This document shows positions 14,003 to 18,865 of a DNA stretch of 64,000 nucleotides, piece after piece (positions within the stretch are counted from its first letter, which is position 1; every line of letters starts with the position of its first letter). A model generated the notes under the pieces. It was not told where the DNA came from and did not search any database. It saw only the letters and a program-made list of their open reading frames with translations. The DNA is from Candidatus Parvarchaeota archaeon. Lineage in GTDB: Archaea; Nanobdellota; Nanobdellia; WJKC01. The position numbers were made by a program, and so were the translations under genes. The stretch lies in contig JAUWZX010000001.1 in assembly GCA_030615175.1 (NCBI GenBank), positions 126,566-190,565 of the forward strand, given 5' to 3'.

Positions 14003-14089
14003 TAAGAAAGTAATTGCTTAATAATCTATTATAAGAGAATAATTGTTTAATCATTTATTATAAAATAATAATTGTTTAATAATTTATTA
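14003..14089. repeat. Three imperfect 29-bp tandem repeats upstream of map
   Basis: taagaaagtaattgcttaataatctatta / taagagaataattgtttaatcatttatta / taaaataataattgtttaataatttatta. Confidence 0.8.
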
Positions 14090-14455
14090 TATTAGTGAAA
14101 AATTCTTGTACAACCTTACAGTCCTGCTGTCATACGTGCTGTACTGCCCGATAAGTTTTAATTCATCACCTTTTGCGCGTGGGACTTTGTCCCAGCACCC
14201 CGAAAACTTTCTGTTTTCGTGGGCTTCATTCAGGTCTTCTTCCAAGCCGTGATAAGCAGTTACTTGTTTTCCAATAAGTTCCGGCCATTCATCTTTATCA
14301 TAGACTTCAACAATGTATTCAGTGTAATCTTCATACTTATTTATTGAAATCATTAGTTCGTCATTGATAATAAGTTCTGTTCTTTCATCTTCTTCAATTA
14401 ATTCACGTATAATCTTCGCTGCATTATGAATTAATGAGTAACGCAATTCTTCCAT
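14087..14455 (-). CDS. Hypothetical acidic protein carrying an in-frame palindromic insertion
   Basis: 122-aa ORF between polB and map; AHENRKFSGCWDKVPR is encoded by the 48-bp element. Confidence 0.6.
   Translation of the reverse strand: MEELRYSLIHNAAKIIRELIEEDERTELIINDELMISINKYEDYTEYIVEVYDKDEWPELIGKQVTAYHGLEEDLNEAHENRKFSGCWDKVPRAKGDELKLIGQYSTYDSRTVRLYKNFSLI
14174..14226 (-). mobile_element. Double-hairpin miniature element, copy A (48-bp core 14177-14224)
   Basis: Minus strand AAGCCCACGAAAACAGAAAGTTTTCGGGGTGCTGGGACAAAGTCCCACGCGCA; 50/53 identical to 16979-17031. Confidence 0.8.
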
Positions 14456-14478
14456 GACTTAAGCTTTGATAGTATCTA

Positions 14479-16806
14479 TTATTTAAAGTATTCGCTTAAC
14501 TTTTTCTGTTCTTTTTCAACGCCCAGTAATTCCATTATCCTGCCGATTGCAGGTATTACTTGATGATTAATGTAGTATTCAGCATCGTACTCTAATTCTT
14601 CGTTCTTAACTTCAAAGACTGGTCTTGCCTTGTCCCTAATCCTGCCCTTGCCTTTAACCACTATGTATTCAATCATCATTCCAGGCTCTGCTTGATATCC
14701 TTTTTCTAATAGTCTTTTTGCAACTGCAACGTGTGGACCAATTACCTTGTATTCTTCTATTGGTCTTTTTAACTGAACCCTGATGATTAATTCATTAATG
14801 TCTGTTTGCCCTTTTTTTAATTCATTAATTATTTTTTTAATAATTCTTGCTGCTTTTTCTTTACTCTTATCCTTTAATAATGCATTGAATACTTTGATTT
14901 GTGTTTTTTTTGCAATGCCTGCCCAGTCGCCTCTGATTGACGCGAATCCTTTAATCATTAAGTTCCCTTCTTTGTCTATCAGGGCATACTTCTTCTTAGC
15001 TCCTCTTTCACCATCCTTTAATGATACGAATAAGCCTCTTTCAAAGAATCCTTCTAATTCTAATTCCATTTTATCAGGCAAGTCCTTATTCACTTTTTTA
15101 AGGAATTTCTTGACTCTTTTTTTATTCGTATTCGTGATAAATAATGAATCAGTGTCTGCATAAGCAACATTGAATCCTTTCTTTTCCGCTTTCCTTATTG
15201 TTTCCTTTATTGTATTCCGTCCTATCCCTGTTATTCTCTCAGCGCATTCATAGCAGTACCATCTCGCGTTTGGGAATCCAAGGTAGCCGTAAGCAGCGCT
15301 TAGAATGTCCTTTAATGCATTGCTTCTTGCAAGCAGTATTGGGTCCTTATTACTTTTTAATTGTTTCTTGATTTCAGTTCTCTTTTTTAGTATTTCATTA
15401 ACAACTTTTGGTATGAATCCTTGTTTTTTCTGGCAGAACTTGCTTTTGCAGCAATTGCAGTTAATAGTTGTCGGGCAGATATTGAATATAACTGTTATTG
15501 ATGGGTAGAGGCTTCTGAAGTCCAGTACCGCAATTTTCTTATAAATGCCTGGTTTTGGCTCGTAAACAAATCCTCCTTTAAATTTCTGCATCCTTCTTCG
15601 CTCGAATACTTTGTCCCTGCCAGGCTTGTTTGGTATTAACTGCTTCGCCTCTTTTGCCTTGCTCATTAAGTAATTCTCAACTAACTGCGAGCGGCTGCTC
15701 CTAGCAGTGTCATACAGTGTTTGCTGGCTCATCCTTGATAATTCAATTATTAATGGATTTAATTTTTTGAATAACTTATAAGTTATTCTGGCATCATTGA
15801 ATGAGTAATCAATTAATTCCTCAGTTTTCCCTGCATCCCATTGCTTGAAGAACTGTTCCCAGTCATTTTCTACTTTGCGTTCGCCTATTAATTCGAAAGC
15901 AACTGAGTTAAGGTCTAAAGTATTGGTTTTCAGTTTATTGCTTAGTATTCTTGAAACAAATTGGAATAAGTCAATATTCATTATTCCTTTAATTCTTGAA
16001 ACAGTTTTTGCCTGCCTCTTGATTATTTTAATGTTGGAGCCGTCAACACCCCAGTCCATTCTTATTCTGTATTTATTCATGCGCTCCCTTAAGTAAGGAA
16101 GGTCGAAGTTATCGCCATTGTAACTTATGATGATGTCTGGCTGTTCTTCTTTAATTATTCTTGAGAATTCCTTAAGCATTGATTCCTCATTTTTAAAAAC
16201 TCTTGTCCTGTCATCCCTGCACGGCTTTGTTAGTAATACTTCCTTGTGCCCTGCGCCGTATAAGCTAATCATTATTACTGGGTCTTTTTTAGGATTGCTT
16301 GTTCTTGCATTGCTTGAGTAAGTTTCAATATCAAATGCTAATGCCTTAGGTTTCCATTCGCTGTCATGCAGTACTTTTACTTCATTTCCAGTCACGCTTA
16401 ACTTGTCAGTTGGTCTTAGTCCTTTGTCAATCAGGAATCTCTTAACGTATTTTATGTCATTCTCTCTTTTTGCAAGCACGCCTTGAATTTCTCCTGCTTC
16501 CCTGCTGATTGAGTAAACTCCTGCTGGTTCATTAATCATTATTTTAAGACATGATACTTTTTTTCCATAGTCTAATAATTCATTTTCTTCAGTGATTCCA
16601 GTAACGTAATGATTTTGCGTTTTAATATTAATTATTTTTTCCTTAATCTCATCTTTTCTTTTCTCATCAATTACTGCGTAAAAGTATGGTGGAAAATTAG
16701 TTATTTGGGCTGTGATTTTCTTGCCATTGCTTGTTCCAAACAACCTTATGACTGGCTCGCCTTCAATCACGTAATCAATGTCCAGCAACCTGAATTTAAC
16801 TTCCAT
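14479..16806 (-). CDS. polB: Family B DNA polymerase (archaeal PolB3-like)
   Basis: ExoI FDIETY, ExoII YNGDNFD, ExoIII YSFND, DFRSLYPS, YADTDS, KKKYA; archaeal N-terminal uracil-sensing region (PVIRLFG, PYFY, ENDI). Confidence 0.95.
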   Translation of the reverse strand: MEVKFRLLDIDYVIEGEPVIRLFGTSNGKKITAQITNFPPYFYAVIDEKRKDEIKEKIINIKTQNHYVTGITEENELLDYGKKVSCLKIMINEPAGVYSISREAGEIQGVLAKRENDIKYVKRFLIDKGLRPTDKLSVTGNEVKVLHDSEWKPKALAFDIETYSSNARTSNPKKDPVIMISLYGAGHKEVLLTKPCRDDRTRVFKNEESMLKEFSRIIKEEQPDIIISYNGDNFDLPYLRERMNKYRIRMDWGVDGSNIKIIKRQAKTVSRIKGIMNIDLFQFVSRILSNKLKTNTLDLNSVAFELIGERKVENDWEQFFKQWDAGKTEELIDYSFNDARITYKLFKKLNPLIIELSRMSQQTLYDTARSSRSQLVENYLMSKAKEAKQLIPNKPGRDKVFERRRMQKFKGGFVYEPKPGIYKKIAVLDFRSLYPSITVIFNICPTTINCNCCKSKFCQKKQGFIPKVVNEILKKRTEIKKQLKSNKDPILLARSNALKDILSAAYGYLGFPNARWYCYECAERITGIGRNTIKETIRKAEKKGFNVAYADTDSLFITNTNKKRVKKFLKKVNKDLPDKMELELEGFFERGLFVSLKDGERGAKKKYALIDKEGNLMIKGFASIRGDWAGIAKKTQIKVFNALLKDKSKEKAARIIKKIINELKKGQTDINELIIRVQLKRPIEEYKVIGPHVAVAKRLLEKGYQAEPGMMIEYIVVKGKGRIRDKARPVFEVKNEELEYDAEYYINHQVIPAIGRIMELLGVEKEQKKLSEYFK

Positions 16807-16849
16807 TACAATACTTTTTTAAGCAATTCTTTATTAAAAATCCTTTATT

Positions 16850-18865
16850 ATGAAGACAATCATTTCAAGCCTTGACTTAACTTGCATTGTCCGTGAACTT
16901 GCAGAACTTAGGGATGCTAAGGTTGAGAAGGTTTACCAGATTAATGATGAATTCATTTTTAAATTATACAAGGAGGGTAAGCCCACGAAAACAGAAAGTT
17001 TTCGGGGTGCTGGGACAAAGTCTCATGCACATTACATTTTAAGGGTTATTAATGGCAAACTCATTCACTTAACTCAGTACTTGAAGGAGAATCCTGAAGT
17101 TCCAAGCCACTTCTGCATGTACCTGCGCAAGTATTTGCATGGCGGCAGGATTGTAAGCATAACACAGCCAGGAATGGAGCGGATAGTTGAGGTCAGGATA
17201 AGGGCTGGGGCTTCCATTTACAGGCTTATTTTCGAGTTATTCTCTAAAGGTAATGTCATAGTTACTGATGATTCACATAAGATAAGGCAGGTGCTTAAAG
17301 TTAAGAGTTATGGTTCAAGGGAGTTGCGTCCTAACAGGCCTTATAATTATCCTCCATCCAAGTTTGATTTAAGTCATTTAAGCGTTTTATCCTTTAAGCG
17401 TGCAATCAAGGGCAGCAGGAAGGATAAGTTAGTCACTGCTTTAGCAGTTAACGTGGCATTGGGTGGTTCTTATGCTGAGGAAGTCTGCCTTAACTCCAAG
17501 ATTGATAAGGACAAGGATCCTAAAATGTTATCTGATGATGAAATTAATAAGTGTTATGAGCATCTTGTCTCGCTTGTTAAGAAAGTTAAGTATTTAGAGC
17601 TTAATCCCAGAGTAATACTTAAAGAGGGTATTCCAATTGATGTTGCTCCTTTCAAGTTAAAGATTTATGAGGATGCTGATTGCAAGGAGTTCCCTAATTT
17701 TAACATGGCTCTTGATTATTATTATGTTGCCAGCGAGAAAGCTTCTTTTGAGATGCGAAAGCAGGAAACCATTGCTTCGGAAAGGGCGCGGATTAAGCAT
17801 CAGGTTATGGGGCAGGAAACGCATTTAAAGGATATGAAGCGGGAGGCAGAGGCGTTGAGGGTGAAGGCGGAGTCCTTGAAGTCTAATCTTTATCTTGTGC
17901 AGTCAGTTCAGGAGTCATTATTGAATGCTAAGCGCGGCGGTTATTCATGGATTGATATTAGGGGAATGCTTAAGCGTGAGAAGGATTCAGGAAGTCCTGA
18001 AGCACTTCTTGTTAAGGATTTAAGCCCTGACACAATGTCCATGATTCTTGACATTAATGATGGATTAGAGGTTGGCTTGAGCGAGGACGTTGCTGAATTA
18101 ATGAATTCATTATTTGAGCGCGCTAAGAAATTAGAGTCAAAGTTTGAAGGAACTCTTAACGCTATTGGGGATTCGAAGAAGAAGCTGGATGATTTAAGTG
18201 TTTCAGATGTTTCTTTTGAGCGTAATGTTCCAAAGAAGGTTTTTCATAAGGCAAGTGAGTGGTATGCTCATTTTAAATGGTTTTATTCAAGCGAAGGATT
18301 CTTAGTTATTACTGGGCGTGATGCGCGTCAGAACGAAGAATTAATTAATAAGTACTTGGAGCCCAAGGACCTTGTCCTGCACGCTGATGTTCATGGCAGT
18401 CCTTTTACCATTATTCGTGACGGCAAGTCTTCTGGCGAGCCTACTCGTTTAGAGGCTGCGCAGTTCACTGCACTTCATTCAAGGGCTTGGGAGTTAAAGT
18501 CATCTATTGATGTTTATTATGTTAAGCCGCATCAGGTTAGCAAGCAGGTTCCTTCAGGCGAGTACATATCCACCGGAGCCTTCATGGTTACTGGTAAGAA
18601 GAGTTATGTGCGGAACGTATTATCAGAGTTATGTGTTGGCGTTGAGGAGTTAGGTGATTTTAATTACCGTTTAATTACTGGTCCAAAACCTGCTGTTGTT
18701 AAGAAATCCAGGCATTACTTAATACTCCATCCTGGTGATGATTCAAAGTCAGAGGTCATTAAGAAGGTTAGAGAGCATTTTAAGAATTATGGTTACAGCA
18801 TACCGACTGAGGAGTTGCAGAAGGCATTGCCGAGCAAGGGCTTCAAGGTGTATTCAATTGTTTAA
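16850..18865 (+). CDS. rqcH: Ribosome quality-control protein RqcH/Rqc2 (NFACT family)
   Basis: PSHFCMYLRKYL, ERIV, ELFSKGNVI, GGSYAEEVC, WYAHFKWFYSSEG, GRDARQNE, HAD, GAFMV. Confidence 0.92.
   Translation: MKTIISSLDLTCIVRELAELRDAKVEKVYQINDEFIFKLYKEGKPTKTESFRGAGTKSHAHYILRVINGKLIHLTQYLKENPEVPSHFCMYLRKYLHGGRIVSITQPGMERIVEVRIRAGASIYRLIFELFSKGNVIVTDDSHKIRQVLKVKSYGSRELRPNRPYNYPPSKFDLSHLSVLSFKRAIKGSRKDKLVTALAVNVALGGSYAEEVCLNSKIDKDKDPKMLSDDEINKCYEHLVSLVKKVKYLELNPRVILKEGIPIDVAPFKLKIYEDADCKEFPNFNMALDYYYVASEKASFEMRKQETIASERARIKHQVMGQETHLKDMKREAEALRVKAESLKSNLYLVQSVQESLLNAKRGGYSWIDIRGMLKREKDSGSPEALLVKDLSPDTMSMILDINDGLEVGLSEDVAELMNSLFERAKKLESKFEGTLNAIGDSKKKLDDLSVSDVSFERNVPKKVFHKASEWYAHFKWFYSSEGFLVITGRDARQNEELINKYLEPKDLVLHADVHGSPFTIIRDGKSSGEPTRLEAAQFTALHSRAWELKSSIDVYYVKPHQVSKQVPSGEYISTGAFMVTGKKSYVRNVLSELCVGVEELGDFNYRLITGPKPAVVKKSRHYLILHPGDDSKSEVIKKVREHFKNYGYSIPTEELQKALPSKGFKVYSIV
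16979..17031 (+). mobile_element. Double-hairpin miniature element, copy B (48-bp core 16981-17028), in frame within rqcH
   Basis: AAGCCCACGAAAACAGAAAGTTTTCGGGGTGCTGGGACAAAGTCTCATGCACA; adds PTKTESFRGAGTKSHA to RqcH. Confidence 0.8.

Follow-up and report, generated by a model that had tools for sequence, protein, structure and literature searches.

The stretch considered here, called the window, comprises 64,000 nucleotides (nt) of contig C5 (positions 126566-190565) of the source genome, G000, which is 1.02 Mb long at 36% GC, 87% complete and archaeal in gene content; the genomes of its relatives span 0.5–1.3 Mb, and together these traits suggest an archaeon of DPANN type. The region carries topA, map, a gene for a 122-residue hypothetical protein (minus strand), polB (minus strand) and the gene for RqcH (plus strand). 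The hypothetical gene and RqcH each contain, in frame, one copy of a GC-rich 48-nt element that folds into two hairpins, referred to below as copy A and copy B, respectively. The repeat was first noticed in an initial annotation of the window and is found where that annotation placed it, with 0 and 2 mismatches and no occurrence in 100 shuffles. Its GC content of 27/48 compares with 35% for the window, and the two predicted hairpins gave z-scores of −2.9 to −5.0 over eight folds, whether treated as DNA or as RNA. As described, both copies are in sense orientation in open frames that are read in different phases; copy A is free of stops in all six frames, and copy B has one stop, in an antisense frame. 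Alleles of other strains were read from the assembled contigs of four of 13 runs (X1, X4, X5 and X6), which come from four studies. The features are:

16850..18865, plus strand: host gene RqcH/Rqc2 (NFACT_N, NFACT-R), 671 residues, with the insert in a turn between two beta strands
16979..16981, plus strand: target AAG directly 5′ of copy B, without target duplication
16982..17029, plus strand: copy B, 48 nt, skipped exactly in X4 and X6 and present in X1; in frame in RqcH as residues 45-60, PTKTESFRGAGTKSHA
16982-17007, plus strand: hairpin 1 of copy B
17008-17029, plus strand: hairpin 2 of copy B
14087..14455, minus strand: host gene for the 122-residue hypothetical protein, with no Pfam family and only three close homologues
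14224..14226, minus strand: target AAG directly 5′ of copy A
14176..14223, minus strand: copy A, full 48-nt form, in frame at about residues 78-94 of the hypothetical protein
14223-14198, minus strand: hairpin 1 of copy A
14197-14176, minus strand: hairpin 2 of copy A
14185..14223, minus strand: initial 39 nt of copy A, without a difference from copy B, with AAG at both borders; missing in close strains (X1, X4, X5)
14176..14184, minus strand: last 9 nt of copy A, a three-residue scar (V/I-P-R/C) in close strains; missing in the most distant homologue

Filled and empty alleles in two host genes

At copy B, an independent X1 contig (16336-17733) spans the site with the insert in place, whereas in X4 and X6 the contigs lack precisely 16982-17029, or the same length one base further on. 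Another contig of X4 and one of X5 show the same net loss of 48 nt, with different letters next to the joint. Since filled and empty contigs both exist, copy B is no assembly artefact but a real and recent insertion without target duplication, and the absence of the element from very close strains means that it has moved recently. The RqcH orthologues of four out of four relatives likewise lack the 48 nt. The initial annotation had expected that removing 48 nt would cleanly restore AAGCA at both sites. This holds at B as far as the length is concerned, but the ends had been drawn 1 nt off and do not give AAGCA back there; at A it does not hold, as the net loss in X1, X4 and X5 is 39 nt and the last nine are retained.

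Copy A has had a different history. Its three homologues are 109, 109 and 106 residues long, and the query used gave no match to the hypothetical protein in four relatives. When copies A and B are compared at their mapped ends, 3/48 positions differ, all of them among the last nine, so that the 39 nt missing from close strains are identical to copy B and the retained bases differ at 3/9 (p = 0.005). No contig of the four runs spans the full copy A, which rests on the present assembly. Most simply, copy A would be an old insertion of which first only a scar of 9 nt was left and to which a B-type copy has recently restored 39 nt, a history to which we give slightly better than even odds; the alternative is a repeated loss of 39 nt in other strains, for which a one-base difference at the X1 junction leaves room. 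A rival explanation of the family is that no dedicated enzyme is involved, and that template switching, gene conversion or microhomology repair spreads the element, with copy A deriving from B, its inverted neighbour 2.8 kb away. The identity over the 39 nt, the AAG microhomology that bounds them, the 19–39 nt duplications carried by other hairpin inserts in G000 and the lack of any mobiliser that tracks the family all fit such copying, which may well account for copy A alone. As a general explanation we consider it unlikely, because it fails for the clean 48-nt insertion at B, where there is no flanking homology, and for the ends and bulge positions that are common to two phyla.

X1 holds one more copy, at a site that is empty in G000, where the two flanks adjoin at C1:58221; here too the insertion is at AAG^C (the caret marks the point of insertion). 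Presence of the element varies among strains that are roughly 97–99% alike, and its sites are not common to related genomes. This variation, together with the X1 contig across copy B, makes it very hard to believe that the copies are assembly artefacts or cis signals kept by the host, such as terminators, mRNA stability elements or protein-binding sites, even though many kin lie at the 3′ ends of genes and tRNAs and their stems covary. As a separate observation, X1 and X5 contigs also skip 58 nt of the self-similar, AT-rich spacer that separates map from the hypothetical gene (window 14011-14068).

In the RqcH protein the insert enlarges a turn. Of 150 homologues, 145 could be scored, and in 143 of these a stretch of 12–18 residues stands in place of the 32 found here. 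In the AlphaFold model the insert is flanked by strands 34-41 and 60-67 and has a pLDDT of 61–68, against a mean of 91.6 and values mostly above 90 for the rest of the chain. There is no splice motif, and multiples of three are selected in open reading frames (ORFs; see below), so the inserts are very probably translated, as a predicted hydrophilic surface loop. Two distant homologues (P0010, P0100) have unrelated inserts of about 10–13 residues in the same turn.

Copies elsewhere in the genome and in other archaea

The initial annotation knew only two copies. Iterated profiles recover 10 in G000, against a best E-value of 0.12 in the reversed genome, and all 10 are in sense orientation in open frames. 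Copies E, F, G, H and I were weak at first (E-values 0.009–9.6), and their later scores are high by construction. Comparison with orthologues shows an insert of 45 nt in uL1, two copies in tandem (96 nt) in fibrillarin and, at the N-terminus of GltX, 16 residues; the empty alleles leave an ambiguity of 0–1 nt at B and none at GltX, so no target duplication is seen. Further copies are found at the beginning of a T2SSF gene, at the beginning of an unknown gene and at the end of a short ORF, which we take to resemble the tail of NrdD; a copy in the linker of DnaG is doubtful. An unbiased scan for double hairpins added no member. Each of the nine well-defined copies measures 45 or 48 nt, they are mostly stop-free, and the phases are hydrophilic in eight read frames and in G. 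Since ORFs of at least 100 residues cover 89% of G000, a location in genes is to be expected once the length fits, and copies of 45 or 48 nt with few stops would open so densely coding a genome to the element.

Possible half copies or scars lie at C5:259520-259560, 302179-302200, 434129-434150 and 96552-96580; three match the 3′ part only and one hairpin 1 only, and as a class they do not exceed background. An excess of 3′-only fragments (24 against 14–18 in controls), considered as a sign of retro-insertion, is not diagnostic: 5′ ends are also in excess (18 against 10–11), and one seed was one base off.

Two models, R1 and R2, were used to search other genomes for the family. At E ≤ 0.01, R1 matched 24 of the 150 other genomes in the class, and at E ≤ 0.001 R2 matched 21/150; R2 also matched 9/101 genomes of the phylum of G151. 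The same-genus genome G001 had no match to the family models, and an exact 19-mer gave no true copy in 40 relatives. In GTDB genomes an exact pattern occurs at 42 loci, in Methanobacterium, Woesearchaeota, Pacearchaeota, Nanoarchaeota, metagenome-assembled genomes (MAGs) labelled Methanosarcinales and bacteria, the six bacterial loci showing the first hairpin only. Two complete Methanobacterium genomes have 87 and 62 matches among the best 150 scored candidates, with duplicates on both strands included. Viral contigs contained none of the element patterns, blastn against plasmids and phages gave nothing, and in metagenomes a first pattern found no locus and a second found two.

These kin lie mostly in intergenic DNA, behind tRNA genes, at the 3′ ends of genes, in chains, or nested behind the loops of other copies. 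The colonising of ORFs proposed in the initial annotation is characteristic of this lineage rather than of the family: of 150 copies sampled (the top-ranked matches fetched rather than all matches, 157 sites less identical rows), 130 lie outside long ORFs, which were called mechanically and are in part spurious. Where copies do enter genes, the frame is selected. In Methanobacterium, 9/11 copies in ORFs of at least 150 residues have lengths divisible by three, against 17/74 outside (p = 2.7e-4); in other genomes the figures are 5/9 and 19/56, with a pooled p of 5e-4. Two of the in-frame Methanobacterium copies were compared with orthologues and are true inserts, with 51 nt and 42–51 nt missing from the orthologues. 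Within genes, only copies with a length divisible by three persist, and they sit at termini or in surface turns. The proposal of a fixed AAGCA target was not confirmed: five of the nine well-defined local copies sit at AAG^C, and in the 150-copy set the upstream trinucleotide is AAA in 46 and AAG in 34 (80/150 together), which describes a target of loosely AA(A/G)^N.

The same data bear on the annotation's alternative of a tiny intron, or more broadly an RNA-level device, be it an intron of the tRNA splicing endonuclease or a segment bypassed by the ribosome, that spreads via RNA. The uniform sense orientation in G000, a second repeat family inside tRNA genes (described below) and the kin in an RNase P RNA gene would suit such a device. 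The 4-bp central helix of a bulge-helix-bulge motif, the only part of that motif scored, is found at the mapped ends of 0/9 local copies, however, and at 1/45 of the end positions tried; frames are selected in ORFs; and the nine in-frame Methanobacterium copies are three in sense and six in antisense, an orientation that is soft. Nor was there any Rfam match above chance (three at chance level) or a reverse transcriptase in G000-G003. We consider an RNA-level origin very improbable.

Two observations on kin stand apart. A member lies inside the RNase P RNA gene of G031 (L080:1001-1068 and L081; Rfam match), and another at the same place in G016. One MAG has a MITE (a miniature transposable element with inverted repeats) of about 220 bp, with GGC...GCC terminal repeats and apparent 8–9 bp duplications, that carries the double hairpin as cargo (L113, L127, L128, L138, L140, L141, L146 and L151); we take this MITE to be IS1595-like.

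Shape of the element and how it may move

In the 150-copy set, 147 copies are 46–57 nt long, with two hairpins, and the ends read C(C)(C)W...WGSR. Among the 10 local copies, 9/19 base pairs show two-sided changes, with a covariation score reached in 0/500 shuffles; over 66 copies the count is 18/19, in an alignment fitted to the model. Most loops are C-NNN-G triloops, which occur in either orientation (CAAAG 37, CTTTG 18, CGAAG 24, CTTCG 9), a pattern of DNA hairpins. When the ends are placed according to the empty alleles, the first base is complementary to a central G in 125/148 copies, a pair that is absent from the model, against 50 for the flanking base; the last base is complementary to the next central base in 122/148 (CG 92, TA 30), a pair that the model includes, against 67 for the flanking base. 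Because both ends pair with two adjacent central bases, the element has the form of a nicked dumbbell. When folded as a circle, its junction closes in 108/150 copies, with 3 bp and then a bulge on either side in 72 and 76 of the 108; the closed dumbbell would thus present two bulges 6 bp apart on one strand. We regard the circular folds as moderate evidence for a dumbbell. The statement that terminal inverted repeats are absent holds in the sense of a MITE, since the ends pair with the centre and not with each other, but the element is near-symmetric and the model matches both strands. A pairing of target bases with a central guide was also tried and dropped, as the element's own ends pair better.

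Taken as a whole, the element is best explained, with a probability of about 0.7, as a non-autonomous mobile DNA element of 45–57 nt that is recognised by its shape. It is multicopy, recent and precise in its insertion, makes no target duplication, has a weak target behind AA(A/G) and is subject to frame selection. The initial annotation had likewise proposed a selfish, non-autonomous element that inserts into ORFs and supplies proteins with extra peptide loops, and the empty alleles, further copies and frame selection support it. How such an element moves can be put forward only tentatively, as a mechanism in which one folded strand is cut out, closes into a dumbbell circle and inserts by a single strand exchange. 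One strand would fold back on itself, its first base and its last each pairing with one of two adjacent central bases, giving a nicked dumbbell with one bulge 3 bp to either side of the nick. An enzyme, host-encoded or acting in trans, would cut the folded strand at both ends; the cut strand would close into a 48-nt dumbbell circle; and the circle would insert by one strand exchange, to be fixed by replication. Wider still, and in our view doubtful, is the idea of a pan-archaeal class of minimal mobile DNA: a closed single-strand dumbbell of 45–57 nt, read through its two bulged bases, whose length has here adapted to essential genes and whose mover would be a structure-specific recombinase not described before, or an enzyme of the host, rather than any known transposase.

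Several points weigh against a mobile element read by shape. The sense bias is only partly explained, since strand bias of the target alone gives p of about 0.01–0.03 for 8/8. Copy I is doubtful, E, G and H lack a clean empty site, and orthologues for E, H and I supplied none. The junction test discriminates poorly: with both ends slid by one base the junction still closes in 66–70/150, and with the 5′ base trimmed in 97, the controls overall ranging over 31–70 with both ends slid and 26–97 with one end changed. The ends themselves rest on two sites, B and GltX, as uL1, the X1 copy and fibrillarin are not decisive, and one Methanobacterium orthologue agrees better with ends shifted leftward by one base. 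Nor does the 39-nt unit at A form a dumbbell. Finally, no circle was seen, and no mover enzyme was found in the incomplete G000, where no search was made for DDE families other than IS110, for Hjc or for topoisomerases.

The enzyme most readily thought of, and the one suggested by the initial annotation, is an IS200/IS605-type Y1 (HUH) transposase acting in trans on a REP/REPIN- or PATE-like element, by excision of a single strand and insertion 3′ of a short target without duplication. Many features would suit it: the precise empty alleles without target duplication, AA(A/G) 5′ of the insertion, nesting behind the CAAAG and CGAAG loops of other copies, Y1 genes in 24/151 genomes of the class including G001, and the 39-nt unit ending in AAG, which would fit cutting at an internal AAG. 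Against it, no Y1 gene was found in G000 (87% complete), in a pair of complete Methanobacterium genomes that hold dozens of copies, or in 11 of the 13 genomes rich in the element, among them the complete G094, G151 and G152; no element lies within about 1.5 kb of 29 Y1 loci by R1, or of five by R2; there is no GTAG or CGTC tag; and G000's TnpB-like gene has no such hairpins around it. We judge this explanation improbable. The lone TnpB/Cas12f-like gene, with no Y1 found in the genome, lies at about 8500-9580 of contig C4 (L280).

Other mover families do not track the element either. RVT_1 is found in 22/151 genomes, none of them G000-G003, and IS110 in 10/151, not including G000. Phage integrase occurs in 3/5 genomes, not in G000 or G031, archaeal integrase in 2/12, and TnpB in 4/12, with one full gene in G000. 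PF00589 and PF16795 have no match in G000, although PF00589 is present in all 14 control genomes, and incompleteness of the assembly may explain this. R2 had no match in 24 loci around mover-type genes, and the four matches in a motif scan of G000 ORFs include no mover.

Comparison with known systems and other repeats

How palindromic repeats move that are of the Rickettsia type or lack a tag has been an open question for two decades, and the present family offers recent filled and empty alleles at base precision, a testable shape and, in cultured Methanobacterium, copies that number in the dozens. Rickettsia palindromic elements (RPE) and their Wolbachia counterparts (WPE) resemble the element in being palindromic, non-autonomous and inserted in frame in conserved genes and in RNase P RNA, with no dedicated transposase (PMC2229807, PMC10969869, PMC3733652). 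RPE are long stem-loops of 105–146 bp with terminal inverted repeats, some with a CGTC tag, whereas the element has 45–57 nt in two abutting hairpins, is untagged and archaeal, and can be read in at least two frames; 147/150 copies are double hairpins of 46–57 nt, unlike a single stem-loop of 100–150 bp with terminal inverted repeats.

REPIN and BIME units (dimers of repetitive extragenic palindromes, REP), moved by RAYT (TnpA-REP), are alike in that two short palindromes form the unit, with nesting and chains, mostly between genes and sometimes in ORFs (PMC3733652, PMC3337134). The doublet of short palindromes, the many copies and the polymorphic sites are all found here. Unlike REP dimers, the element has no GTAG or CGTC tag and no spacer between its hairpins, and no flanking RAYT was found. 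IS200/IS605 derivatives of the PATE kind have a fixed target of 4–5 nt 5′ of the element; here AA(A/G) precedes 80/150 copies and AAG^C marks 5/9 local ones. The ends match no element that codes for TnpA or TnpB.

Mitochondrial double-hairpin elements (DHE) and the GC clusters of yeast are likewise GC-rich double hairpins of 40–50 nt, polymorphic among strains and with no known mobiliser (PMC10085805, PMC4478555). They are organellar, GC42 has a 2-nt target duplication, and they are set beside the element by description only. Integron attC sites are also folded single-strand DNA read by shape, with one strand exchange that replication resolves, and have two extrahelical bases 6 bp apart (PMC7439510), the distance between the bulges of the closed dumbbell. 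The alignments contain no RYYYAAC (R) box, there is no cassette array, and G000 gave no match to a tyrosine recombinase, so that this is a resemblance only. A further preprint was also drawn on for comparison (bioRxiv 10.64898/2026.10.13.758758). The element works like RPE, REP doublets and DHE or GC clusters, but is neither a REP nor an RPE as these are defined; it also differs from MITEs in having no terminal inverted repeats or target duplication, from PATE in its ends and from bulge-helix-bulge introns in lacking the central helix at the mapped ends.

The literature searched, which did not extend to subscription papers (notably Suyama 2005) or supplements, contained no published description of the family. 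The nearest archaeal precedent, the MJRE repeats of Methanocaldococcus jannaschii, reportedly described by Suyama in 2005, are said to be archaeal palindromic repeats with coding potential. The two could form one superfamily, likened by description only. The element is a live source of new loops in the core archaeal proteins RqcH, uL1, fibrillarin and GltX; if its proposed mode of movement is true, a scarless single-strand insertase that reads shape would be a new enzyme activity.

G000 also contains other repeats. A second palindromic repeat occupies 13 sites (C1:58222; C5:1174, 69581, 73803, 281065, 290454, 360871, 532118, 540797, 583447, 589032, 605482, 641198). Eight of the 13 lie inside tRNA genes, several, judged by eye, apparently in the T-arm, where ARAGORN missed them, and at other sites it comes with 19–39 nt duplications of a gene end, presumably a 5S rRNA-like 3′ end and the start of a ribosomal protein gene. 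It begins with CGTC, like one REP superfamily, and serves as an insertion site of the double hairpin in X1 and, apparently, in genomes other than G000. Another hairpin repeat, the third (GGGGG-loop-CCCCC), is found at C1:96307-96423, C5:597393-597487 and C1:35190-35220; two of its copies stand between exact duplications of 32 nt and 24 nt, and one lies at the 3′ end of an rpoH-like gene.

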